Positions 12,856 through 64,000 are shown, counted from the first letter of the stretch. The stretch is 64,000 nucleotides of DNA from Candidatus Woesearchaeota archaeon (GCA_030651375.1 JAUSFM010000014.1:89630-153629), one strand, 5' to 3'. Notes: a model not told the origin generated them from the sequence alone. A program made the numbers and translations.

Positions 12856-12892
12856 GAAAGAGGAGGATTTGATTCCTATTAAATATTTTTGT

Positions 12893-14131: not shown

Positions 14132-14662
14132 TGTTTCTGGGCGTAATTGTTCTGCAGCTCTCCGGTACAATCCCACGTCTGGTTCTCTGAACATTTCTCT
14201 GCCGTGCGCCGCATGATACGCCCCAAGCGTCTGTTCCCGAAAGAGCGGCTGTCTCAAATTGCCAATCACTGTAATCATTGCTGTGTACATTGACTGGATG
14301 ACCCCTTCATAGCTTTCGCGAGTGGTGGTTGCAGTATCGGGTTGCGTTTGAAAGTGTCGAAGGTGGCCAGCAAAGTCCCCGTCAAAATACCGTGTTGCGT
14401 GCGCTGCAAAATCGCGCTGTATCCGCCAGTTGCCTTTTTCCGAAAGCACAAAACCAAGCGCTTCAGAGGGCGTTACTGCTTTTTTTTCAGCAGCCAGCCT
14501 GACACTCTCCAAAAAAATACCAGCGAGAAAAATATCATCTTGTGCACGGCCATACTGCATCGTCGCGGTGCGTAATGCTGCTTCAAACTCGTGCGCTGGC
14601 TGATATGCTGGTTCAATAAACAACGCAGCAAAATTAATTCCCGCAAGGTCGTCGAGGCTCAT
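14120..14662 (-). CDS. Hypothetical protein
   Basis: 180 aa ORF. Its start overlaps the stop of the upstream gene (ATGA), suggesting operon coupling. Confidence 0.4.
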   Translation of the reverse strand: MSLDDLAGINFAALFIEPAYQPAHEFEAALRTATMQYGRAQDDIFLAGIFLESVRLAAEKKAVTPSEALGFVLSEKGNWRIQRDFAAHATRYFDGDFAGHLRHFQTQPDTATTTRESYEGVIQSMYTAMITVIGNLRQPLFREQTLGAYHAAHGREMFREPDVGLYRRAAEQLRPETLRM

Positions 14663-29997: not shown

Positions 29998-30040
29998 TTG
30001 TAGGTAGGGCGAAGATGATTATAGGTAGGACGAAGAGCTT
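29998..30040. repeat. Direct repeat ATTGTAGGTAGGGCGAAGA / ATTATAGGTAGGACGAAGA upstream of the aminotransferase-like operon
   Basis: Two roughly 19-nt near-identical copies separated by 2 nt, about 70-110 nt upstream of the 28875..29930 start. Confidence 0.35.
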
Positions 30041-30276
30041 GGCCAACTTGGAAAGATACATGTTGGTTAACCAGCCTTACTAGTTGATCTGGGGGAGGGA
30101 GTATGAATCGTACCCCCCTCTAGTTCAAACTCAATAAATTCCCCAGTGTCGTCATTCTTTGTTCCCATAAGCAAAACCTGATTTTAAGAAGAAAAAAGCC
30201 TTTGATTTATAAACCTTTGTGGTTAGAAGATATTGAGGAGGATATTACACGTGGGCAATTAGCCCAACAAGTCAAA

Positions 30277-30350
30277 CGCCTCTGCTGGGATTTGAACCCA
30301 GGTCCCAAGCTCCGCAAGCTCGTATACTGTCCAAGCTATACTACAGAGGC
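30277..30350 (-). tRNA. tRNA-Arg (anticodon GCG)
   Basis: Reverse complement gives acceptor gcctctg/cagaggc, anticodon stem cgagc/gcttg with loop ttGCGga, T arm ctggg-ttcaaat-cccag, discriminator G. Confidence 0.8.
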
Positions 30351-30460
30351 ATGGCACTAAGAAGTATATGGCTTGTTTATAAGATTTATTGTTTTAGGGG
30401 CTCTTTTCTTTTGTTTTATAAATAAAAAAATTTATAAGTTATGTCATCGGGAATGACCAT

Positions 30461-30973
30461 ATGAGACAATTAAAGACTATATTTGACACTAATATCTACG
30501 GCGAACTTTTGTCAAAATCAGAGTATGTTGATTTGATTGAAAAAATAAGGTCTGATGGGGGTCTTGTTGTTTTTGGCTTTAGAGAAATAAGAAAAGAACT
30601 AAAAGATACTCCCAAAGATAAGGCCACACATGATGACTCCCAATTGCGAATTGCTTTGCTGGTGTTATACGATAAACTGGTAAAATCAGAAAGAGACTTG
30701 CTTGTCACGCCTGAAATAGAAAAGTTGGCGATTGATTACCACAAGGAATATCAAAAATTAGGAGGTATTACTTCTTTAAATATTCTAAAACGTGATTTTC
30801 TTATTGTTGCCTGTGCCTCAATTAAAAATATGGATATTGTGTATTCGGATGATAACAGCACCATGTTATCAAAATTATCAATCGAATCATATACTGCCAT
30901 CAATAGCCGTGAAAATCTCAGGTCACCTAATTTTCTTAATTTTAAAGATTTGAGAAAAAAATATAACTTTTAA
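30461..30973 (+). CDS. PIN-domain protein (VapC-like nuclease fold)
   Basis: 'IFDTNIYGELL' first-strand Asp motif, and C-terminal 'FLIVACASIKNMDIVYSDDNS' resembling the PIN acidic quartet. AT-rich codon usage. Confidence 0.45.
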   Translation: MRQLKTIFDTNIYGELLSKSEYVDLIEKIRSDGGLVVFGFREIRKELKDTPKDKATHDDSQLRIALLVLYDKLVKSERDLLVTPEIEKLAIDYHKEYQKLGGITSLNILKRDFLIVACASIKNMDIVYSDDNSTMLSKLSIESYTAINSRENLRSPNFLNFKDLRKKYNF

Positions 30974-31155
30974 CTTGTTTGTTTTACAAACCTACGTGCT
31001 GCCTTACAAAATTGAGGGTCTTCCTGCCATTTTCTAAGCAAAGCAAGGAACTCTTTAAAACTCTTTTTCTTTAGTTCAGTATAAGAAACATCTTTCTTGC
31101 CAGTCCCTTTTTTTCCCATCCGCGTCACCTTTCTAAGGTTGAGTGTTTTTTTCAT
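30970..31155 (-). CDS. Small basic protein in the AT-rich islet (unknown function)
   Basis: 61 aa, K-rich, convergent with the PIN gene. Confidence 0.2.
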   Translation of the reverse strand: MKKTLNLRKVTRMGKKGTGKKDVSYTELKKKSFKEFLALLRKWQEDPQFCKAARRFVKQTS

Positions 31156-31264
31156 TTTTAAAATTACCGTTTCTTTTATTAATACATCCTTTTATTGAGG
31201 ATAATGTGTTATAGTTTAGTACCAAAAAGTAGCATTAACATATATACCTTTCGGAAAACTCAGT

Positions 31265-31918
31265 TTATGCTTTTATGGCTATGGTGCTGGGTGCTTTTCG
31301 CCCAACCGATGGCCCGTCCTTGATGACAAAGCCGGCTTTTTTCATGTTCTGCCGAACCTCAGTTGCACAGCTGTAGGTCGTAAGCATAGCTCCTTTTTTC
31401 ATTACGCCCGCCACTGCCCTGAAAAATTCTTCAGTCCACAGCTCCGGGCATTTCTTGGGTGAGAACGGGTCAAAAAAAACAACGTCGAACGAGAGAGGAA
31501 CGAGGCGCGTGATTGTTTTTCGCGCGTCGCCGAGTATGATTTTGAGGCTGATATTTTTCTCGGTTATTGAAAATCCCTTTTTTTGTACGCAGGCCTGCAC
31601 CAGCGGATAGCGTGCGAACTTTGGTGTGAGTGTTGGAATTGTCTGAAGAATTTGCTCGTCGTTTTCAAGGCCGACAATTTCCATGGTGCCTTCGGCAACA
31701 TCGAGCGCAGCGGCGGTGTTGTATCCAAGGCCAAAACACACGTCGAGTACGCGCACGTTTTTTTCCAGCTTTTCCCGGCATACCTCGGCGTATTTTTTAA
31801 CGGCTTCTTCCTCGGCGCCGGACATGGAGTGGTAGGCCTCGCCGTACTGTGTGTTATAAAAGGTCACCGAGCCGTCCCCGGTAACTATTTTGTTCAGCTC
31901 CATTATGTTTTGGAACAC
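31265..31918 (-). CDS. MnmC-like SAM-dependent methyltransferase domain protein (DUF752 family)
   Basis: 'VLDVCFGLGYNT' and 'DVVFFDPFSPKKCPELWTEEFF' match the MnmC C-terminal methyltransferase signature (DxFxDgFsP...peLW). Confidence 0.55.
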   Translation of the reverse strand: MFQNIMELNKIVTGDGSVTFYNTQYGEAYHSMSGAEEEAVKKYAEVCREKLEKNVRVLDVCFGLGYNTAAALDVAEGTMEIVGLENDEQILQTIPTLTPKFARYPLVQACVQKKGFSITEKNISLKIILGDARKTITRLVPLSFDVVFFDPFSPKKCPELWTEEFFRAVAGVMKKGAMLTTYSCATEVRQNMKKAGFVIKDGPSVGRKAPSTIAIKA

Positions 31919-31954
31919 GAGAAACTATATAAAATGTGATGGTTTTGGCAGTGC

Positions 31955-33076
31955 ATGGCAAAAAAGAATGATTTTGTTATTCTTCCCACCGGTCCTAATG
32001 GATATATGGCTGAAGGTGTTGCATTATGTCTTGGAAAACAAGCATTACCTATTCAGAGTGCTGCGTTTAGCGATGGCCACATGATTCGCCGTATTGTTGA
32101 TACCGTGCGAAGAAAGCCAGTGTATCTTGTGCAGACATACATCGCTGGCCAACCTTATCAAATGCTTACCGAAGTCGGCCAGATGCTCAACGCTGCATTC
32201 CATGCCAGTGCTGCCCGAAGAACGGTGGTTATGCCAAAAGCAGTAGGTGACCGACAAGATCGAATTAACCAAGCAGGAGAGCCCATCGAAGTCCAGGAAG
32301 TTGCTGAAGAGCTTGAATCAAAAGGTATGGACAGCTTAATCGTGGTGCGGCCGCATTTTGCGCAATATTCATCAGTTGTTCGCCGGCCGACGCTGATGCT
32401 TTCCGGCTTGCCCTTGTTTGCGTACCATCTTCGTCAGCAAGTTGAAAATTATGATGAACTTTGTTTTGTTGCTGCAGATGGCGGCGCAGAAAAAGAAACC
32501 CGTCTCTTCATGGAGATTATGGGCTCAACACATTACGCAACCGTGATCCAAGGCCGCAAAGTTACTGATAAAACCGCTGATTCAAAAATACTGGCAGGTG
32601 TTTCAGGCGTTGAGCATATTCAAGGAAGGCATTGCGTGTTTATTGAAGATATCGTCGAAAGCGGCACGACCGCATCAAATGCTGCACAAGCGGTTATGGA
32701 TGCTGGAGCAAAAAGTGCAGTACTCTATGCGCCCCATCTTGGCTTGAGTGGCAAGGCACCAGAGTATCTCAATGGTTCACCTCTTTCTGCGGTTATTGGT
32801 CTCGACACGGTGTACCACCCGCCAGAATTTCTCGCACAGTTTGAAAAGGTTAAAATCATCAGCTGTGTTCCCATGCTTGCCGACGTCATCAAGCGCGACC
32901 GCTTCGGTGAATCAACGCGGCTGTTTGCCTGCCTTGACCGTGTGACACTCGCTACAGAGCCGGAGAAGATGTTCGAACTTGTTGAACGAGTGTATCGTGA
33001 AGCCCGAAAATTAACGTACGATAGCGGCAACCAAAATCATCGGTTGCTCCAAGACCGCGTCGCCAACCTTTTTTAA
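31955..33076 (+). CDS. prs: Ribose-phosphate pyrophosphokinase (PRPP synthetase) family
   Basis: N-terminal 'FSDGHMIRRIVDTVRRKPVYLVQTY' (FSDGE...VRG.DVfiiQS pattern) and PRPP-binding loop 'VFIEDIVESGTTA'. 373 aa, longer than typical Prs. Confidence 0.55.
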   Translation: MAKKNDFVILPTGPNGYMAEGVALCLGKQALPIQSAAFSDGHMIRRIVDTVRRKPVYLVQTYIAGQPYQMLTEVGQMLNAAFHASAARRTVVMPKAVGDRQDRINQAGEPIEVQEVAEELESKGMDSLIVVRPHFAQYSSVVRRPTLMLSGLPLFAYHLRQQVENYDELCFVAADGGAEKETRLFMEIMGSTHYATVIQGRKVTDKTADSKILAGVSGVEHIQGRHCVFIEDIVESGTTASNAAQAVMDAGAKSAVLYAPHLGLSGKAPEYLNGSPLSAVIGLDTVYHPPEFLAQFEKVKIISCVPMLADVIKRDRFGESTRLFACLDRVTLATEPEKMFELVERVYREARKLTYDSGNQNHRLLQDRVANLF

Positions 33077-35339: not shown

Positions 35340-36074
35340 TCAGAAAAATACTCCTGTACGATGCATTGGACGGCCAGGATGCTCAAACTGTTCCGCAAAA
35401 CAAAATTGCCAACAATCCCAGTCGATCATGGTTCGAAAATCTTTTCCCTGTATTGGGCCAATGTGTGCTGAGGGGTTAAATTCGTGTATAACCGCCGCAA
35501 CCTGTTCCCAGAAACGGGTGAGAACTTCTTCTGTTTCAAGGACATAGTCAATAGTTTTTGTTCCGGCATCAGGAAAGTTTCCGTCATAGTTGGCGACAAG
35601 CACGGGCTTATTTGTTTTGTCACCAAGAATCGTGCCTTCATATTCTCGGCAATCATCAAAAAAATGGTCTCGGCCGCGATACTCTGCTTTGACTCCTTTC
35701 AGCGCATCCCGAAACCGATCGCGCTCTGCTGCCATTTCCGGGGAAACTGAAAAATACAGATGGAGCATGGTGCGGTGGGGATACCACACCTTTTTCAGTG
35801 TACGCTCATCAAGTGTGTCGGCGACAACATAGGTAGCATGCTGCCGCAATGCAACTACATGCCCCGAACAGGTGTGGTATGTGTCCTCAACAAACGGCAA
35901 TCCCCACAATGCAGGCACAATCTCCCGAATGGGCTCTTCAAGAAGCGGCTTAAACTGTTGGTAAATCTGTATTCGATCGGCATCCATTGGTTCACTGGTT
36001 TTTCCGTTCGCGTAGCGCCGTTTCGCCGTAGGCGAAACGGCTTCCGTCGTCCACAACAGTTTTTTGCGAAGCAA
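35340..36074 (-). CDS. Hypothetical protein
   Basis: 244 aa ORF with no recognizable motif. Start may be the internal Met at 35987. Confidence 0.35.
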   Translation of the reverse strand: MLRKKLLWTTEAVSPTAKRRYANGKTSEPMDADRIQIYQQFKPLLEEPIREIVPALWGLPFVEDTYHTCSGHVVALRQHATYVVADTLDERTLKKVWYPHRTMLHLYFSVSPEMAAERDRFRDALKGVKAEYRGRDHFFDDCREYEGTILGDKTNKPVLVANYDGNFPDAGTKTIDYVLETEEVLTRFWEQVAAVIHEFNPSAHIGPIQGKDFRTMIDWDCWQFCFAEQFEHPGRPMHRTGVFF

Positions 36075-36085
36075 AAAAATGTTGA

Positions 36086-36158
36086 TGGGGTTGGGAAGAT
36101 TTGAACTCCCGTCGCACCCACCCCAAGGGTGAATCCTACCAGGCTAGACTACAACCCC
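36086..36158 (-). tRNA. tRNA-Pro (anticodon GGG)
   Basis: Reverse complement gives acceptor ggggttg/caacccc, anticodon stem caccc/gggtg with loop ttGGGgt, T arm gggag-ttcaaat-cttcc, discriminator A. Confidence 0.8.
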
Positions 36159-36233
36159 GATGAGATGGACAAAACTGGCAGGGGATATTTAAATGTTTGT
36201 GGATAACCAGCTTTGGCGTAAAAGGGCGAGAAT

Positions 36234-38096
36234 TTAGTTAGATAGGTGGAGATTATGAGAGCAGTGAAAAGTTCTCGGTAGATGGTTTTGAATTGTTTTC
36301 TGGCACCATATCAAGTCGGTCAAGATAGAAAACTGCTTGCCGATCGTCAACATATATCCACGAATTGTGTATTTTTTTATGAGCTGTTTTATCTTCCTCT
36401 CAGTATCTGCTGTTTTATTTGCTTCACAATACACCTTTTTTGTATCGACTCCAGTTTTTTGGACGAGTAGATTTCCACACATATTGGTAAAATCAGTTCG
36501 GTGAAGGACAACAAATCGCACGGTCTTTCTGAATTTCTCAAAGTCCCAATCAAGAATGTCATCTGTTTCGTGAAGGGTAGTGTTATCAACGCGCGAAACA
36601 AGGCCGCCTATGATTTTATGTTCGTGATGCATCTGTGCGTACATATTTCGTGCGCTCACTCCGTTGGTGTTCTGAAGTCCAACAGCGAGCGGCAAGTCAA
36701 GAACGGCACCGCCTTTTATCTCAAAAAGGGCATCCTCATAATAACTTAGTTCTTCATCAGCTTGCGGCGTGGCGTGAGACATAGGTATTGGTATTGCGGT
36801 AAGGTCAATGAAGATTATCCCGACGAGAAGAACCGCTACAAGAATGTTTCCGTTTCCCTTTAAAAACCGCAAACCTTTGCTTTTTTCGAGCACCATTTTT
36901 ATTCCGTACCCTGCAAGTACGATGGTTCCAAGGGATACCATAAATGTGAATCGGGTGAATCGAAGACTATCCATGAACGGCAGCTGCCTGAGGAGATTGG
37001 CAGGCATCGCGATATCTTGAAGAAACTCGTTTCCATAAAACCGAATTCCTTTTTCTCCAATACTCAACACAAAAAAAATAATCGCAAAGAGTATCCAGAA
37101 CCATTTTTTATTGTCTTTGGAAAACAACATTCCCGCGGCAGCAAGAATGAGTACGGATATGCCAAGGTATTCATATCCTCCACCCCCTTTGAACACGGTG
37201 CTCGTTGCAGGTCGAAGCAAATAGTTGGCAACATCAGTTTTATCATTCTCCGTTCCTACAGCGGTGTGAATACCCTTTTTTTCGATCATACGAAACGAGT
37301 GCGGCGAGGACAACACTATGAACAGGGCACCGATGAGGACCAGCTTCCACCATACTTTTTTTAAGCTTGGTTGGTGGCTGGTTGGATTTTTTGCTGAGGT
37401 TGTTTGGTTCTTTCTTTTTTCGACAAGGTAGTCTGCAAAAAAATATGCCAAAAATAGTCCAGTAAACAGAATCATAAACAAGGCATATACGGGCTCTAAA
37501 TAGAATATGACACCAAGAACAAGAGCGGCTATGGCACTGTTTTTTACCGTTGGATTATCACGGGTCTTGAACAAGAACAAAATATACAAAGGGATGAATT
37601 GTATTGATGCAAAGTTAAGATGATTCAGTATGCGAAACATATGCCACGGACTGAACGCGTATAGAATACCCATGATAATCGCGGCTTGTTTATTATTGAG
37701 AAGATAATCACCGAGAAGATACATGCAATACCCCGCAAGAGGGAAGGTAAGAAGAACAAGAATGTTATACGCAGCGATGTATCCAACAACTTTGGCGAGA
37801 AGCATGCCGATGAATGAGTTTAAAATACTGAGTGTATGAAACGTGAGATCGACACCGTGGGGGTAAAAAAGATAGTCGGTGTAAAAAAAAGGCAGTCCGT
37901 CGTGCAGTGATTTTTCCATCCACCACATATTCCACATAAAAACAAGACTATCTTTTGGATCGTGACTCATCGGCTTATCAAGATTAAACACAAGTGGGTA
38001 GGTAAAAAAGATAGTCAGCAGAGAAAATACTGCAAAAAGTATAACGAACTTTTTCAGGTTGGGATGGTGAGAATCAGACGTCGATGGTTCACCCAT
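36234..38096 (-). CDS. Polytopic (about 12-13 TM) membrane protein with C-terminal soluble domain, candidate GT-C-type glycosyltransferase
   Basis: 620 aa. N-terminal 420 aa are hydrophobic helices with a conserved loop 'PLVFNLDKPMSHDPKDSLVFMWNMWWM'. Paralogous to 38836..40551. Embedded in a glycosylation gene cluster. Confidence 0.45.
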   Translation of the reverse strand: MGEPSTSDSHHPNLKKFVILFAVFSLLTIFFTYPLVFNLDKPMSHDPKDSLVFMWNMWWMEKSLHDGLPFFYTDYLFYPHGVDLTFHTLSILNSFIGMLLAKVVGYIAAYNILVLLTFPLAGYCMYLLGDYLLNNKQAAIIMGILYAFSPWHMFRILNHLNFASIQFIPLYILFLFKTRDNPTVKNSAIAALVLGVIFYLEPVYALFMILFTGLFLAYFFADYLVEKRKNQTTSAKNPTSHQPSLKKVWWKLVLIGALFIVLSSPHSFRMIEKKGIHTAVGTENDKTDVANYLLRPATSTVFKGGGGYEYLGISVLILAAAGMLFSKDNKKWFWILFAIIFFVLSIGEKGIRFYGNEFLQDIAMPANLLRQLPFMDSLRFTRFTFMVSLGTIVLAGYGIKMVLEKSKGLRFLKGNGNILVAVLLVGIIFIDLTAIPIPMSHATPQADEELSYYEDALFEIKGGAVLDLPLAVGLQNTNGVSARNMYAQMHHEHKIIGGLVSRVDNTTLHETDDILDWDFEKFRKTVRFVVLHRTDFTNMCGNLLVQKTGVDTKKVYCEANKTADTERKIKQLIKKYTIRGYMLTIGKQFSILTDLIWCQKTIQNHLPRTFHCSHNLHLSN

Positions 38097-49146: not shown

Positions 49147-51240
49147 TCATCGCCGTGCCCCTACTTCTTTTCCTTCAGGTGTATATTTCTTGACATCGAT
49201 AACGCTCTCAACATTGCGGATGAGCGTGGTGAGCTGGTCAATGCCCACTGCTGGAGGAACATCCAGTTTGAACGTGATAACAACATTGTCTTTTTTGCTG
49301 CGTGTGTTCACCGCAAGCACATTAATGCCCTGGCGCGCAATGAGATTCAGAACCTGTGCCAGCAAGCCAACACGGTCATGGACCACGACTTTCAGTTTCT
49401 GAATGTTTTCAGTGTCGTCTTCTTTCCATGCTGCAACAAGCGCCTGGCTCTGGTTCAGCGTTGCGCTGTTCGGGCAGGCCTTTGCGTGAATCGTTATCTT
49501 TTTTTCTTTGGTCAAAAACGCGAGAATCGGCGTCTTGAATAGTGGTGCGCAACATTTTGAAAATTTAATCTGCGCCGGCTTCGGCTTCATGCCACTGATG
49601 ATTATTTTTTCTTTGAGCCGCACGCTAATGGGCGAGGCATCATCGTCTGCGCCCGAGACATCGGTCTTGATGTTAAGGATTGTTTTTATCTTACTGCGCG
49701 CCTTGCTACTTTTCACAAACGAAAGCCATGCCCGCGCTGGATGCGCATTGCGCTGGAGGGTGATATTAACGACATCGCCGCTTTTCAGCAGCGTGTCAAG
49801 CGCCACATTGAAGCCATTGACCTCGGCCCTGGTGCAGTGATTGCCAACGTTGGTATGGACGGCGTAGGCAAAATCAACCGGCGTTGATGCCTCCGGAAGA
49901 GAAATCGGGTCGCCTTTCGGCGTAAAGACGACAATTTCATTTTCAAACAAGTCAATGCGCAGGGTTTCGACAAACTCTTGCGCAGTTTTTGATTCCTGCT
50001 TCCATTCGAGCAGCTGCTTCAGCCAGCTCAGCTTCCGGTCAAACCGCTTGTCGCGTTCGCTGCCTTTGTACCGCCAGTGCGCAGCAATGCCCTCCTCGGC
50101 GAGGTTGTGCATTTCTTTTGTTCGTATCTGAATTTCAATAATTTTTCCGTGCGGGCTCACCACCGAGGTGTGCAGTGACTGGTAGCCGTTTGCCTTGGGC
50201 ACTGAAAGATAATCTTTGAACCTGCCGGGAATCGGCTTCCAAAGCTCATGCACTATGCCAAGCGCTGCGTAACATTCAGGAACCGTGCTCACGACGATAC
50301 GAATGGCGATAAGGTCGTAAATTTCTGAGAAATCTTTTTGTTTTTTCTTCATCTTTTGGTAGATGCTGTAAAAATATTTTGCCCGGCCAACAACATCCGC
50401 GGCAATCTGCGCTGCTTCTAATTTTTTGTGGATATGGGAAATAAGTTCCTTGGTATTTTTTTCGCGCTCTGCTCTTTTTTCTGAAATGCGCGCGCGTATT
50501 TTGTGGTACGATTCAGGCTCAACAACTTTGAACGCGAGGTCTTCAAGTTCGCCTTTCATCGAGCGCATGCCAAGCTTGTGCGCAATCGGCGCATAGATGT
50601 TCATTGTTTCTTGGGCAATGCGCTGTATTTTTTCGGGCCGGAATCCGCTCGTGCCGAGCGTGCGCATGTTATGGAGCCGATCAGCCAACTTGATGAGAAT
50701 AACGCGCACATCCTTTGCCGTGGCGAGGAGGATTTTCCGGATGTTTTCAGCAGTGTATTGCTCTTTTGACTCAAAGCGTATCTGAATTTTGGTCACGCCA
50801 TCAACCAGCGAGGATATTTCCTCACCGAATTCCTTTTTCAGCTGCTCGATGGTGACGCCGCAGTCTTCGACACAGTCGTGCAGCAGGGCGGCGCATAAGC
50901 TTGCTGAATCCGCCTTGAACGCCATGAGAATCGATGCTGTTTCAAGCGGGTGGATAAAATAGAATTCTCCTGAACTTCGCGTCTGGCCATGGTGCGCGTT
51001 GTGCGCAAAAATAAATGCTTTTTTCAGCTTGGAAAGGTCGGCATGGTGGTTATACTCCAAGACCTTTTTGAGAAATGTCTCGCAGCTTTCATGCGTGTGC
51101 GTGCCTTGGTCAAACGCGCGGATTTCTTCAAGCAGGTGTTCGGGGATAGAGGGAGTAGAGTGTGCCATGGCGGTGCCATTTTTTCCATTGCGCTTTAAAA
51201 GCGTTGTTAGGGAGGTTATCACGTCAGCCATAAGCATCAA
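49147..51240 (-). CDS. Long RelA/SpoT-homolog (p)ppGpp synthetase/hydrolase (HD, synthetase, TGS and ACT domains)
   Basis: HD motif 'HPLETASILMAFKADSASLCAALLHDCVEDC', synthetase 'DLIAIRIVV...GYQSLHTSV', TGS 'VVFTPKGDPISLPEASTPVDFAYAVHTNVG', and a C-terminal ACT-like region. 697 aa. Confidence 0.75.
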   Translation of the reverse strand: MMLMADVITSLTTLLKRNGKNGTAMAHSTPSIPEHLLEEIRAFDQGTHTHESCETFLKKVLEYNHHADLSKLKKAFIFAHNAHHGQTRSSGEFYFIHPLETASILMAFKADSASLCAALLHDCVEDCGVTIEQLKKEFGEEISSLVDGVTKIQIRFESKEQYTAENIRKILLATAKDVRVILIKLADRLHNMRTLGTSGFRPEKIQRIAQETMNIYAPIAHKLGMRSMKGELEDLAFKVVEPESYHKIRARISEKRAEREKNTKELISHIHKKLEAAQIAADVVGRAKYFYSIYQKMKKKQKDFSEIYDLIAIRIVVSTVPECYAALGIVHELWKPIPGRFKDYLSVPKANGYQSLHTSVVSPHGKIIEIQIRTKEMHNLAEEGIAAHWRYKGSERDKRFDRKLSWLKQLLEWKQESKTAQEFVETLRIDLFENEIVVFTPKGDPISLPEASTPVDFAYAVHTNVGNHCTRAEVNGFNVALDTLLKSGDVVNITLQRNAHPARAWLSFVKSSKARSKIKTILNIKTDVSGADDDASPISVRLKEKIIISGMKPKPAQIKFSKCCAPLFKTPILAFLTKEKKITIHAKACPNSATLNQSQALVAAWKEDDTENIQKLKVVVHDRVGLLAQVLNLIARQGINVLAVNTRSKKDNVVITFKLDVPPAVGIDQLTTLIRNVESVIDVKKYTPEGKEVGARR

Positions 51241-55401: not shown

Positions 55402-55872
55402 ATGGCAATTATCGGATTTAACTTTACCAAGATGCACGTTGAGCGCAAGGCACCTATTGCCGGCAAGATTTCAGTCAAGAATAACGTTTCTATCAAAGAC
55501 GTTGAAAAAAACGACTTCAACTTTGGCAAGGTAAAGCAAACCGGCCTGAAGTTTACATTCGAATTTACGGTTGACTACGAGCCAAAAATTGCAGACATCC
55601 TTCTTGAAGGCGAAGTGATTGACTTACAGGACGAGAAGCGCGCTGACGCTATTGTCAAAGAATGGAAGAAAAGCAAAAAGCTCGAGCCTGCAATCATGAC
55701 CTCCATTTTGAACACCGTGTTGAGCAAGGCAAACGTGCAGGCACTTATTATGAGCAGAGACATGAACCTTCCGCCGCCCATTCCGCTGCCGAAAGTAAAT
55801 GTACGGGGAAGCGGGAACACAAACGACACGGACGCGATGGAGTCTAATGAGACGGTTGAAGTGAAGAAGTGA
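55402..55872 (+). CDS. Hypothetical protein (track ORF trimmed to ATG 55402; the upstream part is antisense to dys)
   Basis: 156 aa, beta-rich N-terminus, Pro-rich C-terminus. Confidence 0.3.
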   Translation: MAIIGFNFTKMHVERKAPIAGKISVKNNVSIKDVEKNDFNFGKVKQTGLKFTFEFTVDYEPKIADILLEGEVIDLQDEKRADAIVKEWKKSKKLEPAIMTSILNTVLSKANVQALIMSRDMNLPPPIPLPKVNVRGSGNTNDTDAMESNETVEVKK

Positions 55873-57503: not shown

Positions 57504-59108
57504 TCATCCAGTGGTACGGTTTCGCCGATACACATACACGTCCTTGTCCATAAATCCAAGTTCTGTTCCGCTGCGGGCGAGCTCTTTCCAAAACTGCCAG
57601 TCCTGGCCGCGCGGCCATAGCCTGCTGAAATAGCCAGCTGCATCAATCGCTTTTTTGGTCATCAGTGTTGTTCCGCCATGGATGATGGGCGCTCCTTCGA
57701 GCTCCATCGGCGAACAAGGATTGACCTGTCCTGTTCTGAATCGTTGAAGATTATATGTATGATAACGCGCTGCGCCTGATTCAGGAAATGGCCTTCCGTG
57801 CTCATCAGTTGTCCTGCTCTGTGCATGGACAATACCGACGGTTGGATGCGCTTGAAGATAATCGATTTGTGATGTGGTCTTATCTGGAAGAATTGCGTCG
57901 CTGCCGCCGGTGACTGAAAAGTAACGAGCACCGCGGGCTTTTCCAATCTTTAGTCCGCGCGCAAATGCGCCGCCTGCGCCACGATTTTCTTCGCTCACAA
58001 CGACGACACTACCATCACTGATCTCGCGTGCATACCTTTTGCGGATGCTGTCTGCGGTTGCTCCGGTGGTGCTTCCATCGTCAATAACAATGGCGCCCAC
58101 GCGGTGGTGCCCCTCTTGGTTTAAAATACTCGTGAGGCACTGGTCAACATGATATGGATTTTCATTATAGAGTGCAACAATGTAGGCAACATCAATTGGT
58201 GGTGCAGCGCACGCCTGCGCTGTTTCTGCTTCGGTGATGCGATGAAATGCACGGCGTTGGAACGGATTATGTGGTGTGCTGTTTTTTCGTGCTGCATCAA
58301 AAAGTTTCAGCACGCCTTCGACACCTTCATTGCACAGGCCGCGGTAATAGGCAATTTCAGGATTTGCCGGATCTTTTTTTGCCGCTTGGTACAGGTACCA
58401 TCGCGCTGCCTTGGTGTGCTGTGCTCCGATGTCGCCGTCACGCAGGCCGAAAACAGCGTGTGCTTTTGCACGCAACAGAGCACGAGAGGGATTAGTTTCG
58501 CCAGCAGGTATTTGGTTCAATCGATCAGTTGCATCACGCTCAATTTTTTCTATCAATTGTGTGATCTCCGGTGTGGGTCTTTTTTGTTGGACGTTGAGCA
58601 AGGTGGCAAGCGCTTCTCGTTCACGTCCCTCCCGCGCCAATGCTTTTCCTAATCCTTGGTAGGCAACAGGATTGTGGGGGTTGACAAATTCAATAACTTC
58701 ACGAAAACAGTGTTCTGCGGCATCATACCTCTGTAGGGTAAAAAGAAGGTCGCCGAGTTCAATCCACGCTGAATCGTTCATATAATCATTTCTTAACACG
58801 AATGTATAACCACCGGGAAAGGGGTTATTGTTCCGAGGGGTTGCGGCGCGCAAGGAAGGAGTGTCAAAAAGCATTGCGGGATTGCTGGTTCCCACGGCCT
58901 TGACAACATGGCCGCGATCGCGGTCGGCACGGGCTGCGCTGTGGAACTTGGCATTCGCGTTATATAGAGTGGCAACAGACTGTTCAAAAGCAGACGTGGG
59001 TTGTAGTCGTAATTGTCCCCGTACAAGTAACTCTTCAAATTGGCGGTGTGCTGTTTCAGGATCGCCGGTTCTGCTGACTGCTCTTGCGCGTATGATTGCA
59101 GGGTTCAT
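57504..59108 (-). CDS. N-terminal TPR repeats fused to family-2 glycosyltransferase domain
   Basis: GT2 'VAYIVALYNENPYHVDQCLTSILNQ...AIVIDDGSTTG' and a DxD-like region. The N-terminal 250 aa are TPR-like. Confidence 0.6.
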   Translation of the reverse strand: MNPAIIRARAVSRTGDPETAHRQFEELLVRGQLRLQPTSAFEQSVATLYNANAKFHSAARADRDRGHVVKAVGTSNPAMLFDTPSLRAATPRNNNPFPGGYTFVLRNDYMNDSAWIELGDLLFTLQRYDAAEHCFREVIEFVNPHNPVAYQGLGKALAREGREREALATLLNVQQKRPTPEITQLIEKIERDATDRLNQIPAGETNPSRALLRAKAHAVFGLRDGDIGAQHTKAARWYLYQAAKKDPANPEIAYYRGLCNEGVEGVLKLFDAARKNSTPHNPFQRRAFHRITEAETAQACAAPPIDVAYIVALYNENPYHVDQCLTSILNQEGHHRVGAIVIDDGSTTGATADSIRKRYAREISDGSVVVVSEENRGAGGAFARGLKIGKARGARYFSVTGGSDAILPDKTTSQIDYLQAHPTVGIVHAQSRTTDEHGRPFPESGAARYHTYNLQRFRTGQVNPCSPMELEGAPIIHGGTTLMTKKAIDAAGYFSRLWPRGQDWQFWKELARSGTELGFMDKDVYVYRRNRTTG

Positions 59109-59174: not shown

Positions 59175-60605
59175 TTAATCGGCTTTTGGAGGGGCCAAAA
59201 ATACGCTCATTTTGGCTTCTACCTGACCATCGAGCCGTTTTGCCCGGTATTTCAGCCCGGCACCGTACTTACGGTTGCCTTCAGTGCTGCTCTCTGCGCT
59301 GATAACTTCCCCCAACAAATACATTCCCGCTGCGCTGTCAATGCCGCCACGCCCACTTCCCCGAAAGATAGTGAGTTGCTTTTTTGCTTCAGGATAATCT
59401 CCTTCCATGAACGCAGCAAGGCCTCGCATAAAAAAAGGATAATATTCAATGGGCACCGGCGTTGCAAGAGCCTGCAGTTTCTCTTCGATGGTCGCGTCTT
59501 TTTTTCGCGCGTAGTATTTTAATCCGGCAGCCCATTTTGCTGCGCCCGCGTTCAGTGGTTTTCCATCAGGTCCCTGATTCTGCGCATCAACAACCATGCC
59601 GAATAAGTACACACCAACGGCGTCGTCTGCTGATTCACTTTTTAGAAACGGTGCAAGGTGCTGTCGAGCATCTCCATATGCTCCAGAACCATAGGCGCGC
59701 GCGCCTCGAATGAATGCACCGCGATAGGCAGGCGACGGCACTGCCCCTGCACGAAGTAACTCGTACACTAAAAGATGTGCAAGAAGATGGGGTGTTTCAC
59801 CAACATCGGGCCGCACTGCTTCTTTCAATCCTTGGCGCAGAGCGGATGTTTCTTCACCAAGCCGGCGTATCTGATTCGTTGCTGCTTCAACTGCCTGTGT
59901 GTATTCCGCTTGAATACGGGCTTCTGCTGCACGCGCTGTTTTCAACGCTGGCTCTAAACCCTCTGCCCGTGTTCTATATATTTCTGCATCTGCTAGATTT
60001 TTATCAGCTTGTCGGCGTGCAGTAGCGCGCTCTGCGCGCGCAATGTCGCCATCACGAACTGCGGCATTATACAGCGTGCGGTTTTTATCTCGCTCGCGTT
60101 CCGCTACTTCAACGCGTGCTTCGAGTTCGCGAACTTTCGCCGGATCACCGCCCTTACTCGCAAGAAGTTCTTGAATGCGCCGTTCTGAAATGCCTGCACC
60201 AGTTGCAGCAGCCCGAACAAGATCGAGTAATTTTCTTTCTAAATCTCCTTTTTCTGTTTCTGCAACAGCCAACCGATCCTTCAAAATCTGTGCTCCTGCA
60301 AGAATACGCGCAACCTGTTCTTCAGGAATGCCGCCGCCGTTGCCGTAGCTGTTCACCCAGCTCTCGAGCTGGGCTGCATCCGCAGCTTCAATCTCCTGAT
60401 ACGCGCCATTCAAAACCTTGAAAACGCCGTCGGCAGGCAAGCCGTAATCAACAAAATCTTTTCCACCCTGATCCGGGTGGAGCAGCCGCGCGGCATTGCG
60501 ATAATATTTTTTTGCTGCATCAACTAATGTGCCGTTGACTAACAAAACCTCAAGCTGTCCCTTGCTGAAGGGAAATTTGCTGAGTGGATTTTCTTTGGTA
60601 GCCAT
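59175..60605 (-). CDS. J-domain (DnaJ-like, HPD motif) protein with central coiled coil and two copies of a novel C-terminal ~70-aa module
   Basis: 'AAKKYYRNAARLLHPDQGGKDF...FKVLNGAYQEI' is a canonical J-domain helix II-HPD-helix III. The middle is an R/A/E-rich coiled coil. The C-terminal module repeats (…GVYLFGMVV…KAA…; …GMYLLGEVI…LDGQVEAKM). Confidence 0.55.
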   Translation of the reverse strand: MATKENPLSKFPFSKGQLEVLLVNGTLVDAAKKYYRNAARLLHPDQGGKDFVDYGLPADGVFKVLNGAYQEIEAADAAQLESWVNSYGNGGGIPEEQVARILAGAQILKDRLAVAETEKGDLERKLLDLVRAAATGAGISERRIQELLASKGGDPAKVRELEARVEVAERERDKNRTLYNAAVRDGDIARAERATARRQADKNLADAEIYRTRAEGLEPALKTARAAEARIQAEYTQAVEAATNQIRRLGEETSALRQGLKEAVRPDVGETPHLLAHLLVYELLRAGAVPSPAYRGAFIRGARAYGSGAYGDARQHLAPFLKSESADDAVGVYLFGMVVDAQNQGPDGKPLNAGAAKWAAGLKYYARKKDATIEEKLQALATPVPIEYYPFFMRGLAAFMEGDYPEAKKQLTIFRGSGRGGIDSAAGMYLLGEVISAESSTEGNRKYGAGLKYRAKRLDGQVEAKMSVFLAPPKAD

Positions 60606-60624
60606 GATATGCGTTCACCCTCTT

Positions 60625-61629
60625 TTATCTTTTCGGCGTGATTTTCGGCGCACCGAGATATCCGGCGACGGTGCTGGCTGCTGCGGGATCACGTGTTTTG
60701 AGATCCGCAACAAACGTCGCGTACGACGCAGGGCCGCGGGTTTGTTCGATCATGCCGGCGATGAGTGGAGGAATCATCTCAACCAGTTCGCCTAATGCAA
60801 CATACCGTTCAGTTTCGCTTCCTGGTGTGATGCAGGATTTTTTTGCAATCTGGAAAACAGGGTTGTTTCCTTGTATGCCCTTACAATCAACGACATAAAA
60901 CAAGCTGCTTACCGCTTTGAACGCTGCAAGTGATGTTCGCCAATTGACATTCATCGGGCACCCGTAATCCTCTCCCATAAATACGTCTGCGTAATATCGG
61001 TCCTTGACATCAGTAAATACCCCTCTAGATTTTAGATCTGCCAACTGGCCATGCGCCGCAGTTTCCATAAAAGTAACTGCAACAACTTTTCGCCTTTTTC
61101 CTTCGGGAACGTGCGCAGCACTAACCAGTTTTGCTGCTTCATTCCAGCCACATTCATAATTCTCCACCGTATCAAAATTGCTTGGCGCCGGCCGAATTCC
61201 AGCAAGATATTGTTGGACAGCGGCCCTATCTTTATTAAGCGGGAAAATATCGACACCAAGAACAGGTTCACGAAATGAAGACTGGCCATAATGGTCCGTA
61301 AGTGCCAGAATTGCGAATCGTGTTGTTGCACCGGGTTTCCATAATTCGCCTGAAAAATCGTTAATCGTTTTTTCAACTTGCCCTATAGTTGGGTACATAC
61401 TACCAGTTCTATCCACCACGGCAACAACATCAACAACGCTGCCTTCGGCTTCCAGTTTTGCTGCGCCTTTGACGTCGCCGGCTGCGAGGAGCCGTGCAGA
61501 ATCAGTAATCACTGAATCAACAAATGCTTCTGCAGCTTGTTCTACTGTTTGTCCTTTCGGCAGGGATTTTGCGTCCTTTCCTGCGCCTAATCCTAATAGT
61601 TCATCTAACAAATTTTTAGAGTCTGCCAT
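60625..61629 (-). CDS. von Willebrand factor A (vWA)-like domain protein
   Basis: MIDAS-like 'VVAVVDRTGSM' (DxTxS) followed by a Rossmann-like alternation. 334 aa. Weak family assignment. Confidence 0.4.
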   Translation of the reverse strand: MADSKNLLDELLGLGAGKDAKSLPKGQTVEQAAEAFVDSVITDSARLLAAGDVKGAAKLEAEGSVVDVVAVVDRTGSMYPTIGQVEKTINDFSGELWKPGATTRFAILALTDHYGQSSFREPVLGVDIFPLNKDRAAVQQYLAGIRPAPSNFDTVENYECGWNEAAKLVSAAHVPEGKRRKVVAVTFMETAAHGQLADLKSRGVFTDVKDRYYADVFMGEDYGCPMNVNWRTSLAAFKAVSSLFYVVDCKGIQGNNPVFQIAKKSCITPGSETERYVALGELVEMIPPLIAGMIEQTRGPASYATFVADLKTRDPAAASTVAGYLGAPKITPKR

Positions 61630-61631
61630 AG

Positions 61632-62240
61632 TTATTCACCTTGTGTTGTTATTGGTTTCATTTTCGTTTCGATTTCTGCGTCAAGCGTTCGTGCTTTGCC
61701 AATGAGATGTCTGCTGAATTTTTGCGCCCCGACGTCTTCAGGATATAATCGTCCGACAACCACTCCCAAAAGATAGGTCCCGTGCGGGCAGTCTACTGTT
61801 TTCCTAAACGACTCAAGCATGCTGCGTGCTATAGCGAGGTCGCCGAATCGGAATGCAGCAACGCCGCCTTCATACGTCTCCAGATACGCTGCAGGAATAT
61901 GTTGTTTGGCAAGTTCCCGTGTAACATCTTCTACAGATCGGGCCACAGGCGCATCTTTTTCAAGCTTGAAGATCGTTCCATCGGCAATACTATAATCGTT
62001 CAGATGTAAAAACTCCTTAACTGCAGTATAATCAACGCCGAGGCCATATGTTTTGTTGGCCATAGTCTCCAAAGCATTGTACGTTCTTCTTCTTATTGCT
62101 TCATCTTCCTCCCAAAATTGGTCCATCCGTCTCTCCCTTAATCGGTCTTGAATGGTAGCCTCTGGTTGGCCTGGAACATTTCGCTTTCTGCCCCCGGTTA
62201 TTACTCTAGCAACCAGTCGGGTAAATATATTTTCACTCAT
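61632..62240 (-). CDS. Small protein (203 aa) carrying the shared C-terminal module of the cluster
   Basis: Track ORF trimmed to the ATG at 62240, 2 nt after the upstream stop. C-terminal 'GDLAIARSMLESFRKTVDCPHGTYLLGVVVGRLYPEDVGAQKFSRHLIGKARTLDAEIETKM'. Confidence 0.4.
   Translation of the reverse strand: MSENIFTRLVARVITGGRKRNVPGQPEATIQDRLRERRMDQFWEEDEAIRRRTYNALETMANKTYGLGVDYTAVKEFLHLNDYSIADGTIFKLEKDAPVARSVEDVTRELAKQHIPAAYLETYEGGVAAFRFGDLAIARSMLESFRKTVDCPHGTYLLGVVVGRLYPEDVGAQKFSRHLIGKARTLDAEIETKMKPITTQGE
61655..61765. repeat. About 110-nt DNA segment near-identical to 62258-62363 (47-nt perfect core)
   Basis: tcaagcgttcgtgctttgccaatgagatgtctgctgaatttttgcgc is identical at 61681-61727 and 62279-62325, with near-identical flanks. 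Encodes the conserved module in two adjacent genes. Confidence 0.6.
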
Positions 62241-63993
62241 GCGCCAACACCTCATGCATATGCGTTTCAATTTCTGTGTCAAGCGTTCGTGCTTTGCCAA
62301 TGAGATGTCTGCTGAATTTTTGCGCTCCAGAATTATCTGGGTATAATCGTTCGACAACTGTGCCGAGCAAATACAGCCCGGGAGCCACATCGGTTCCTCT
62401 GAAGGTTTCGAGTGCAGTCCGAGCTTCGGATAAGTTTCCTTCAGCGAAGGCACGTAACCCAGTTTGATAAGGAGTATGATATTGTTCTGGCACGCCGGAT
62501 AATAATGCAGCAAGAGGTTGCACCACTGTTTTTTCTGCTTCTGCTTCCAACATTCCAACTTCTTCCCTGCGTTGTGCGTAGGCGCCGAGGAATCCGGCAA
62601 CTGCATCCATGACAGCAGCGTACGGGTTCAATCCTGCAAAGCGATATAATGCTGCTTTATCCTGAACTGCTTCGGGTGTGATTTCGCCGGTAAGGCTGGT
62701 AACAACTTGGTTGAGGAAGGTTCCTAATTCTCTTTGTTGAGCACCGCTCGTGGCAGTGAGCTGTTTAATTTGACTTGTTTGTTCACCGAGCTGGCCACGA
62801 AGTGTTTCCGTTTCTCCACGCGCAGCATCACGTTCTGTTTCAGCTGCAGCGAAACGGCTGCGATAGGTTCGTAATGCAGCAGCCATGGGCACGTGAACAT
62901 CGGACAAGAAACCGTTAAACCATTGCGTTGCTTCACGCTCTTGTTGATATGCCTGTACGATGCCAGTAAGATACCTACACATTTCTTGGTCTTCTTCGCT
63001 GTTGCCAGCGAATTTTCTTTTGATAGTTGTGTACACTTCATTTGGATCTGCCATGGAAACAAGACTTGACAGAACACCAGTGACCGCGGTAAGCCTATCA
63101 GCGAGTGTATAGTTTGTTCTGTTGAGTTTACGTATTTCTTCTTGATGAACTGTTTGCGCTGCTTTCAAATCTGCAATTTCTCCCAGTTTTCCAGCAATGC
63201 GCGACGCTGCTGCGCCTGCCTGCCGTCCTGTTTCTGCCTTTGCCTCTCCAAGCAAAGCGTCCAGAGTCTGATACAACGTCGGATCAACGCCCAAGCGCAC
63301 AAACAATGCGCGCATATACGCTGCATCATCCTCTGCAGCACGCCGTGCATATTCGGTTCGGGAGAATCGGTTGGTTAATTCGCCGCCATACATTCCATGC
63401 AACCGCTGGTTGCCTCGCCAAGATAATTTGTGCCTGATGTCAGCAGGTGTTGCCGGCCGTGCGCGGACATAGACGACAGAAACATCATCTTTTCCAACAA
63501 ACTGTTCATTGAATTCAGCAAGCCAATCTTGTTCGAATTCTTTAGTGTTTTTGTCGGAAGGAATTGAAGCAGGATTGTGGTGCTGCGCCCAAGAAACAAC
63601 TTCTTCGTATCCAATCGCGGATAATGGCTTCTTGACATGACGTTCGATGGCCGATGAATTCAGCATATTATTTCCGATGATGAGCTCTCTGATTTTAAGT
63701 TTTCTGAACGTCGTCCATGCGCCGAAGCCGACGCCGGGTGAGTTTTCTGAAAAAGAAGTGCTTGCTGAATCTGCGATAAGGTCAGCAACGTTTTGGGGCG
63801 AGACGGTATAGTCCAGTTCCACACGGCGTTCGCCGCGCTTGTAATCCCATTGAACCGTGCCGAGTGCAGCGGTGAGGTCGGCAGGCGACAAAAATGCAGC
63901 GCCGTCAGACAGGAGCATGATGTCCCCGGCAAGCGGCTGAACCGCACAGGAGACAGTGAAATCTTTTTCAGCCATGCCCAGCGCCCGTGACAC
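62233..63993 (-). CDS. Large (586 aa) protein with unknown N-terminal domain, central coiled coil and the shared C-terminal module
   Basis: C-terminal 'GNLSEARTALETFRGTDVAPGLYLLGTVVERLYPDNSGAQKFSRHLIGKARTLDTEIETHM'. First gene of a four-gene co-directional cluster. Start lies 7 nt from the window edge. Confidence 0.45.
   Translation of the reverse strand: MSRALGMAEKDFTVSCAVQPLAGDIMLLSDGAAFLSPADLTAALGTVQWDYKRGERRVELDYTVSPQNVADLIADSASTSFSENSPGVGFGAWTTFRKLKIRELIIGNNMLNSSAIERHVKKPLSAIGYEEVVSWAQHHNPASIPSDKNTKEFEQDWLAEFNEQFVGKDDVSVVYVRARPATPADIRHKLSWRGNQRLHGMYGGELTNRFSRTEYARRAAEDDAAYMRALFVRLGVDPTLYQTLDALLGEAKAETGRQAGAAASRIAGKLGEIADLKAAQTVHQEEIRKLNRTNYTLADRLTAVTGVLSSLVSMADPNEVYTTIKRKFAGNSEEDQEMCRYLTGIVQAYQQEREATQWFNGFLSDVHVPMAAALRTYRSRFAAAETERDAARGETETLRGQLGEQTSQIKQLTATSGAQQRELGTFLNQVVTSLTGEITPEAVQDKAALYRFAGLNPYAAVMDAVAGFLGAYAQRREEVGMLEAEAEKTVVQPLAALLSGVPEQYHTPYQTGLRAFAEGNLSEARTALETFRGTDVAPGLYLLGTVVERLYPDNSGAQKFSRHLIGKARTLDTEIETHMHEVLAHE
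62258..62363. repeat. Second copy of the near-identical ~110-nt segment (see 61655-61765)
   Basis: Same 47-nt perfect core, 62279-62325. Confidence 0.6.
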
Positions 63994-64000
63994 GCGGTTG

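Follow-up and report, generated by a model that had tools for sequence, protein, structure and literature searches.

Triads of a vWA protein, a PP2C phosphatase and a kinase are predicted to act as phosphorylation switches (PMC7159879; PMC10542128), the TerY-P triad (Anantharaman et al. 2012, summarised in the latter) among them. MoxR-vWA ternary and GTPase-Hsp70 conflict systems (Kaur et al. 2020, PMC7159879) pair a vWA protein with chaperone function, and the vWA protein ArnB of Sulfolobus is regulated by phosphorylation through kinases and a phosphatase (PMC6509490, PMC7472852 and PMC12852372). On the chaperone side, DnaJ-TPR is among the commonest class C J-protein architectures (PMC10410713), and many DPANN archaea possess DnaK-DnaJ-GrpE (PMC8204110). 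Here we describe a minus-strand gene run from Candidatus Woesearchaeota archaeon (GCA_030651375.1, JAUSFM010000014.1:89630-153629; "the window" is this whole 64-kb stretch) in which a vWA gene is followed by a gene for a J-domain protein. Loci of relatives are labelled L002-L013 and library proteins P0002-P0030. The features of the run, all on the minus strand, are as follows.

62233-64000, minus strand: gene A, 3' two-thirds, residues 321-906 of the 906-aa protein P0012; the gene crosses the window end
63424-63993, minus strand: C-terminal part of the PP2C catalytic domain of A, with the SDG and DDVS motifs in the window
62236-62484, minus strand: module copy in A (aa 504-586), from blastp to B and D and alignments
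61776-62256, minus strand: 481-bp segment without a counterpart in L007, from blastn of L007 against the window and the junction sequences
61632-62240, minus strand: gene B, 202 aa from the ATG at 62240 (source record: 164 aa from 62126, P0011)
60625-61629, minus strand: gene C, a 334-aa vWA protein
61399-61413, minus strand: MIDAS-like motif (metal-ion-dependent adhesion site) D73-R-T75-G-S77, pattern DxTxS, from an alignment of six homologues
59175-60605, minus strand: gene D, 476 aa, with an N-terminal J-domain, a ~170-residue coiled coil and two module copies
60339-60566, minus strand: J-domain of D (aa 14-89), from Pfam, a PDB-sequence profile, hhalign, the HPD motif and AlphaFold2 (AF2) helices
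59817-60323, minus strand: helical/coiled-coil region of D (aa 95-263), AF2 helices 95-136 and 155-263 at low to moderate confidence
59193-59729, minus strand: tandem module copies in D (aa ~293-385 and 387-471), from blastp, alignment and AF2
57504-59108, minus strand: gene E, TPR plus family-2 glycosyltransferase (Glycos_transf_2 E 3e-12, TPR_14 E 1e-8), soluble, no transmembrane segment
55956-57500, minus strand: gene F, family-4 glycosyltransferase with C-terminal TPR, soluble, no transmembrane segment

The individual domains are ordinary. What is undescribed in the sources that we searched is the strict vWA-J pairing, the concerted swapping of C-terminal modules and the fast divergence at a fixed locus. 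We read the locus as a conserved, chromosomally anchored, fast-evolving operon of a narrow Woesearchaeota-type (DPANN) clade, working by the mechanism set out below, and consider the chance that this is right to be a little short of even.

By analogy, the locus would work most like TerY-P or a vWA-chaperone switch, yet it belongs to neither the TerY-P nor the MoxR-vWA systems. It shares with the TerY-P triad (as summarised in PMC10542128) a standalone vWA gene beside a PP2C gene, a Ser/Thr kinase nearby (in L002, L006 and L009), coiled-coil proteins and a predicted phosphorylation-switch logic. Unlike in TerY-P, the kinase is non-adjacent, absent from the window and without a recognised zinc-ribbon or OB fusion (it is a plain Pkinase in the relatives), the PP2C is fused to a coiled coil and a repeat module, and the constant partner of the vWA protein is a J-domain protein, which is not a TerY-P feature. 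Full-length A, C and P0009 have zero PADLOC matches at E <= 1, with the TerY-P content of PADLOC 2.0 unconfirmed by a positive control. NCBIfam likewise gives no TerY-type match for either the vWA or the PP2C protein.

The systems of Kaur et al. (PMC7159879) are similar in pairing vWA with chaperone function, in their TPR and J-domain accessories, in their PP2C/kinase/vWA themes and in their glycosyltransferase components, and their effector-associated domains (EADs), which are adaptors shared by several components, resemble the matched modules described here. They differ in that our operon lacks a GTPase and at no locus contains a MoxR AAA+ (the adjoining Cdc48 is of the housekeeping type), the chaperone link would be in trans via a J-domain, no effector domain is recognised, and the system belongs to DPANN archaea, as a single copy that keeps to one housekeeping locus. 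As in class C DnaJ-TPR proteins (PMC10410713), an HPD J-domain is joined to TPR-type repeats that presumably select a client, but the J-domain of D is highly divergent (below the Pfam threshold), a ~170-residue coiled coil is inserted, the repeats are private, Sel1/TPR-like and exchangeable between lineages, and the gene is strictly coupled to a vWA gene. Compared with the ArnA/ArnB module, our locus has no FHA/zinc-ribbon partner and no specific sequence similarity, its phosphatase is PP2C rather than PP2A, and it has a J-domain partner. No PADLOC model matches A, as window fragment or at full length, or B, C, D, E, F, P0009 or the L005 J-protein, and the pairing of vWA with a J-domain is absent from the literature searched, in line with the first-pass annotation, which had not recognised the arrangement as a described system.

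That annotation also presented the run as four packed minus-strand genes. The open reading frames (A 62233-63993, B 61632-62240, C 60625-61629, D 59175-60605) and their tight spacing stand, with gaps of 2 nt between B and C and 19 nt between C and D, but A and B overlap by 8 nt and A is incomplete in the window: there are zero stop codons between 63993 and the window end, so A is open at its 5' side. The term "four-gene operon" had to be given up: A is a truncated PP2C gene, B is probably a recent lineage-specific insertion product, and the run continues past 59175, with E 66 nt after D and F 3 nt after E.

Gene order in the relatives identifies the part of the operon that stays constant. The loci are given below (protein lengths in aa in brackets).

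L004: GatE, GatD and Cdc48 (minus strand), divergent from PP2C (1018), vWA (331), J-protein (499), family-2 glycosyltransferase and onwards to deoxyhypusine synthase
L013: GatE, GatD and Cdc48 (minus strand), divergent from PP2C (1094), then the start of another gene, where the contig ends
L009, vWA 41% identical: Pkinase and Cdc48 (both minus strand), divergent from PP2C (1063), vWA, J-protein (544), family-2 glycosyltransferase, APH/methyltransferase, family-2 glycosyltransferase, and further on deoxyhypusine synthase, TatD and TsaD
L006: PP2C, vWA, J-protein (649), two family-4 and one family-2 glycosyltransferases, Pkinase
L002: starts inside the PP2C gene, otherwise ordered as L006, extending further downstream to deoxyhypusine synthase
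L005, 43% identity: vWA, then a J-domain/coiled-coil/TPR protein (670), no PP2C visible
L010/L011, 36% identity: vWA, then a J-domain/coiled-coil protein (200), no PP2C visible
L012, sister operon: ending in a TPR/family-2 glycosyltransferase, a family-4 glycosyltransferase/TPR and a module-methyltransferase

The vWA-to-J adjacency is kept in five lineages at identities down to 34-36% (L005, L010/L011), which answers the earlier call for a check of synteny: the constant core is vWA then J-protein, with PP2C and glycosyltransferases frequent and a kinase occasional. The cluster sits between cdc48 and the deoxyhypusine synthase gene (dhs). A Cdc48-type double AAA+ ATPase lies divergently next to the PP2C gene (L004 3326-5602, L009 3707-6574, L013 2929-5205), a neighbourhood that may reflect plain synteny or a functional link, and the cdc48 gene of our genome may lie just past the window end. 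The Pkinase gene of relatives is four genes downstream (L002, L006) or across cdc48 (L009). In the operon-linked Pkinase of L002 (7373-8392) and L006 (9249-10268), the catalytic loop reads LCLDLTLTN and not HRDLKxxN, with SDPD and not DFG, so judging from these motifs it could be a pseudokinase.

The family is rare. Among 5.8 billion clusters there are ~8 vWA-protein clusters, and the GTDB species representatives hold no relatives of C. The 10 nearest loci found via a conserved neighbouring small protein are without relatives of A, C or D, Joint Genome Institute metagenomes added one extra locus, and IMG/VR viral contigs had no relatives.

Where the operon occurs, it diverges far faster than its surroundings while staying at its fixed locus. 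When the window is compared with L002, L004 and L009, identity is 83-88% for the neighbouring deoxyhypusine synthase, TatD and a small conserved protein, but only 41-64% for the vWA protein, 34-54% for the J-protein and 23-33% for the PP2C. The small protein (window 55402-55872, plus strand, ~156 aa, no Pfam match) served as our yardstick of genome relatedness: it always lies between the glycosyltransferase cluster and deoxyhypusine synthase, and is 83-87% identical in L002, L004 and L009 and at most 56% identical in the nearest GTDB representatives.

The C-terminal module is what ties the phosphatase to the J-protein. As the first reading of the sequence had noticed, A, B and D have it in common and D has it twice. 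The blastp matches are far beyond chance: A501-582 against B115-197 gives 59% identity (E 6e-25), A against D370-471 gives E 9e-13, and A against D294-374 gives E 2e-5. The module is a fixed block of ~85 aa with four to five helices, a variable loop and a conserved tail, K[AT]..LD..[IV]E.KM. It has a helix-hairpin periodicity (G..AF..G.Y..A...L and GMYLLG...W..KA), and in the AF2 model of D each copy forms four to five helices at a predicted local distance difference test (pLDDT) score of 50-74.

Pfam thresholds for TPR/Sel1 were reached by none of nine module copies (best HemY_N E 0.039, TPR_16 E 0.014, TPR_2 E 0.04), and the module profile against PDB sequences returned designed helical repeats (E 0.005-0.04) and one SEL-1 protein (E 2.1), which is uninformative. 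Foldseek with the D model returned TPR proteins for nearly all of its top matches, none significant (all E > 0.5), the best being the TPR-glycosyltransferase GmaR. The likeness to Sel1-like repeats and TPRs lies in the helix-hairpin periodicity, in the 31% identity (E 9e-4) across the whole module to P0028, a small protein with a Sel1 match, and in the ordinary, canonical TPRs that orthologues have where the module stands; it departs from them in reaching no Pfam threshold, in being a fixed ~85-aa block and in being found only in this operon family.

A profile built from eight copies was searched in 1.84 billion (1.84e9) representative proteins and found 20 at E <= 1e-3. Full-length copies occurred only in PP2C proteins (P0012, P0014 and P0013 = L2_244), J-proteins (P0002 and P0003, with four copies in P0003), B (P0011) and the methyltransferase P0019. 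The weaker matches scanned included, besides P0028, multi-repeat TPR proteins (P0022, E 1e-4; P0023, E 2e-4) and P0016 and P0018, for which Pfam gives only unrelated repeat domains. The exact form therefore appears confined to this operon family in a search of that size. We conclude that it is probably a private, divergent, Sel1/TPR-like helical repeat unit: the shared module that the first-pass annotation saw is real, but its unnamed domain is probably no new fold class. As a separate observation, P0019 (L012 3549-4460) is a methyltransferase of the S-adenosylmethionine type with an N-terminal module copy, last in its operon after two TPR-glycosyltransferases.

In other lineages, different modules take this place, and they too are matched between the two proteins. 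Canonical TPR units are what the PP2C and J proteins of L004 have in common (64% and 54% identity, E 3e-30 and 3e-23), and the corresponding pair of L009 is linked by a third helical module (E 2e-8 and 5e-4). With hhalign probabilities of 1-2%, we rejected descent of the window, L004 and L009 types from one ancestral module. The module of A is 33-38% identical to the D modules of its own genome and 27% identical to the orthologous A module of L006; in the reverse comparison the L006 PP2C module is likewise closer to its own J modules (31-40%). Since unrelated module types are matched in both the PP2C and J genes, gene conversion alone is an insufficient explanation, and the matched replacement, as far as alignments can tell, argues for selection that keeps phosphatase and J-protein directed at one shared partner or at each other. 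The C-terminus of an L009 family-2 glycosyltransferase (12824-14281, 485 aa) is weakly like the L009-type module (E 0.019 and 0.26); if this resemblance is real, module matching extends to glycosyltransferases.

Gene C carries the vWA assignment, which is weak by sequence and firm by structure, as modelled. The Pfam VWA_2 model matches C at E 0.1, its L004 orthologue at 0.009 and its L002 orthologue at 0.001, always at the same position, and P0009 has a precomputed PF00092 match. A profile of C against PDB sequences gave a single insignificant match (3rag, E 0.25). The sequence profile being uninformative, the assignment needed a structure model, which shows a Rossmann-like alpha/beta vWA fold and so bears out the vWA protein called at first sight. 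The core spans ~aa 64-298 (60736-61440); a helical extension precedes it and a segment of three helices follows. The DxTxS motif (D73, T75, S77) is invariant in all six aligned homologues, and the DxTxS pattern persists in P0029 and P0030, which are more distant. The other metal ligands depart from the canonical pattern, E156/N157 and E189 being invariant candidates from the alignment. Two family-specific invariant motifs, ENYECGW (61144-61164) and T[FC]METAAHGQ (TFMETAAHGQ in the window, 61045-61074), probably sit at vWA metal-ligand places, judging from the strands and helices of the model.

Several lines of evidence support a divergent J-domain in D, the NCBI name of an identical protein being "J domain-containing protein". 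Its HPD motif (aa 43-45, 60471-60479) is kept in all orthologues examined (the window, P0002-P0004 and the distant L005, L009 and L010). Pfam DnaJ (PF00226) gives E 0.032 and 14.8 bits, below its cut-off of 27.8, so by score the epithet "textbook" does not hold. When the first 112 aa of five orthologues were made into a profile and compared with PDB sequences, J-domains (Tim14, auxilin, zuotin, DnaJ, Hsp40) accounted for 19 of the 21 matches listed, all with E values of 0.16-1.9 and alignments that cover HPD. An hhalign comparison of the D profile with a small, manually entered J-domain alignment gave 86.7% probability (E 4e-6, 63 columns). AF2 helices 15-23, 27-42, 58-74 and 77-86 fit J-domain helices I-IV at pLDDT 75-83 (57 for the model of whole D), and helix II, AAKKYYRNAARLL, is basic as in J-domains.

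D is broadly of the DnaJ-TPR type, i.e., a class C J-domain protein. The 64-kb window has zero Hsp70 signatures, so no Hsp70 lies nearby, as had been said. The accompanying surprise at finding a J-domain in an archaeal genome was overstated, because DPANN archaea often have DnaK (PMC8204110) and DnaJ-TPR is common (PMC10410713), which makes a J-protein here unsurprising in itself.

The product of gene A is, on its motifs and profile matches, a PP2C phosphatase followed by a helical/coiled-coil region and a single C-terminal module. P0012, from the representative library, is identical to the window sequence from residue 321 to its C-terminus, and Pfam PP2C_2 recognises its N-terminal part above threshold (E 4e-8, 33.5 bits, cut-off 24); the NCBIfam Stp1/IreP PP2C model matches at E 2e-20. 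The motifs NED, ADGLGG and NVGDSR are all N-terminal and outside the window. Inside it, the SDG motif GDIMLLSDGAAF (63892-63927, minus strand) and the DDVS motif GKDDVSVVYVRA (63460-63495, minus strand) probably represent PP2C motifs 8 and 11, going by the known PP2C motif pattern. The orthologues, 1018-1094 aa long, are laid out like A.

Gene B stands apart from the core. It consists of a 114-aa N-terminus (61890-62240) and a single module copy (61635-61889), and in L007, L002/L006, L004 and L009 the A-like and vWA genes have no B-like gene between them, nor does any translated protein of L002/L006, L004 or L009 match its N-terminal part. In the closest relative, L007, DNA identity to the window is 94% across the last part of gene A and 83% from the module end through C and D into E. 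The A-like gene of L007 ends in the tail KMKPITTQGE, which in the window is B's tail, with the vWA gene directly after. On either side of the 481-bp segment that has no L007 counterpart stands a copy of ~117 bp from the 3' half of the module (62257-62373 and 61659-61775), the two being 86% identical over 102 bp. B is best seen, from these junctions, as a probable insertion or duplication product, a stand-alone module copy outside the core. Its N-terminus also has a weak match (E 0.0067, aa 15-112) to an IS630-family transposase, which hints at a mobile-element remnant creating gene B.

Gene E is kept downstream of the J gene in L007 and L012. Pfam matches F with Glyco_trans_1_4 (E 3e-20), GT4-conflict (E 3e-13) and TPR_16 (E 4e-8), and the search for solved relatives of E and F returned nothing beyond generic GT4 and TPR matches. 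Transmembrane-like segments are predicted in none of the window proteins, so the chemistry is cytoplasmic. For the same reason, secreted or surface proteins were rejected, and the earlier idea of surface assembly is left without direct support.

What the tools show is which domains are present, how the genes are ordered and that the modules match; the functional steps below are all our inference. The vWA protein (C) would bind a client or scaffold protein via its metal site, and the PP2C and a kinase, encoded nearby or elsewhere, would set the phosphorylation of the vWA complex, as in TerY-P-type switches and as is known of archaeal ArnB. The J-domain may then recruit the cellular DnaK/Hsp70, by which the complex would be remodelled or released. 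Like C-terminal modules would dock the phosphatase and the J-protein (in the sister genome, the methyltransferase) on a common partner or on each other; if modules dock enzymes to one partner, a module should be replaced in step in both proteins. The TPR-glycosyltransferases, plus the methyltransferase in the sister genome, may modify the same cytoplasmic protein target. The predicted system has a core of C and D, usually preceded by A and followed by E and F, and in relatives it may include a module-tagged methyltransferase or a Ser/Thr kinase.

Several points weigh against this mechanism. Its client is hypothetical, A and C match no PADLOC model, and NCBIfam TerY-type models do not match C. 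No Hsp70 gene is encoded within the 64-kb window, and a tblastn search found no kinase there, the kinases of relatives being several genes off and not always present. With ~8 vWA clusters, co-occurrence statistics are small. Support for a TPR/Sel1-like fold of the module comes from weak profile matches and a low-confidence model, and the matching of modules could partly be gene conversion between neighbouring repeats without selection. A bolder claim, which we regard as doubtful, is that the locus founds an undescribed vWA-centred class, analogous to the MoxR-vWA chaperone pair and to TerY-P, in which Hsp70 is the ATP-driven partner and is recruited in trans by the J-protein. Interchangeable, genome-matched modules would then direct the PP2C, the J-protein and modifying enzymes to one rapidly changing target, and the extreme divergence at a fixed site would reflect an arms race at a virus or host-symbiont interface in DPANN archaea.

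Among the alternatives, the one that survives best is an antiviral or conflict system of the TerY-P/vWA-ternary kind, in which the vWA protein senses an invader protein, PP2C and kinase set a threshold, J-protein and Hsp70 handle assembly, glycosyltransferases are the effectors, and the swapped modules are diversifying recognition parts. Such a system would fit the combination of vWA and PP2C with a kinase in L002, L006 and L009, the divergence of the operon far above its flanks and the swapping of module types between lineages, and both kinase/PP2C/standalone-vWA and DnaJ-or-TPR/Hsp70 themes occur in conflict systems (Kaur et al. 2020, PMC7159879). The L002 kinase matches PADLOC kinase models such as MkoA and PD-T4-6, but A, C, D, E and F have zero PADLOC matches and the window is without a kinase; F matches GT4-conflict, but more weakly than it matches generic GT4 models. 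A nuclease, protease, pore or other obvious toxic effector is absent, every genome seen has the operon at one fixed site between housekeeping genes and not on a mobile island, and the IMG/VR contigs are without relatives. We think a conflict role unlikely.

Another possibility is an island devoted to cytoplasmic protein glycosylation and to the assembly of a filament or cell-contact structure, like the flagellin glycosylation islands with TPR-glycosyltransferases. The coiled-coil PP2C and J proteins would then be scaffolds or chaperones of the glycosylated subunit, and the variability would come from pressure on a surface-exposed glycoprotein. Soluble TPR-glycosyltransferases that always follow the J gene and vary as a set among genomes, long coiled coils in A and D, a hypervariable locus at a fixed site and the top (not significant) Foldseek match of D to GmaR are all consistent with this. 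However, the cluster has no pilin, archaellin, S-layer, sugar-nucleotide biosynthesis, flippase or membrane-protein genes, and the vWA-J pair lacks adjacent glycosyltransferases in L005 and L010, which makes such an island distinctly improbable in our view. Least of all do we expect that there is no dedicated system, i.e., that D is a general class C co-chaperone, A a general phosphatase, the vWA gene a chance neighbour and the modules the result of duplication and gene conversion: DnaJ-TPR is very common (PMC10410713), B shows that local module duplication occurs, and independent genomes are few, but the vWA-to-J order is kept in five lineages though identity drops to ~35%, the genes overlap or are 2-19 nt apart, and gene conversion alone does not explain three unrelated module types each matched between A and D.

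Elsewhere in the window are genes for deoxyhypusine synthase, Kae1/TsaD, TatD and LonB; Hsp70 (by motifs), GrpE, kinase (by tblastn) and Cdc48 are absent from its 64 kb. A 697-aa long RelA/SpoT homologue is encoded at 49147-51240 (minus strand; HD_4 E 8e-46, RelA_SpoT E 5e-44, TGS, ACT). Here a DPANN archaeon encodes a bifunctional (p)ppGpp synthetase/hydrolase of bacterial type, and long bifunctional RelA/SpoT proteins are unusual in archaea. G+C content is lower at 30001-32000 (0.40) and 36001-38000 (0.43) than elsewhere (~0.48), and these stretches, which adjoin tRNA-Arg (30276-30351) and tRNA-Pro (36086-36158), may be small islands.

DPANN archaea are uncultivated, reduced symbionts in which most lineage-specific genes have no assigned role, and this locus offers a compact, testable case. 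If its function turns out to be ordinary proteostasis or glycosylation, the value is limited to the correct annotation of four hypothetical genes. With its proteins at 23-64% identity and those of the flanks at 85-88%, the operon is among the fastest-changing parts of these genomes and is a candidate for virus- or host-interaction functions. If the J-protein is indeed tied to vWA and PP2C, the known pairing of vWA with an ATP-driven chaperone (MoxR) would be extended to Hsp70, and the step-wise, matched replacement of docking modules on two enzymes would be a clear natural case of modular re-addressing.

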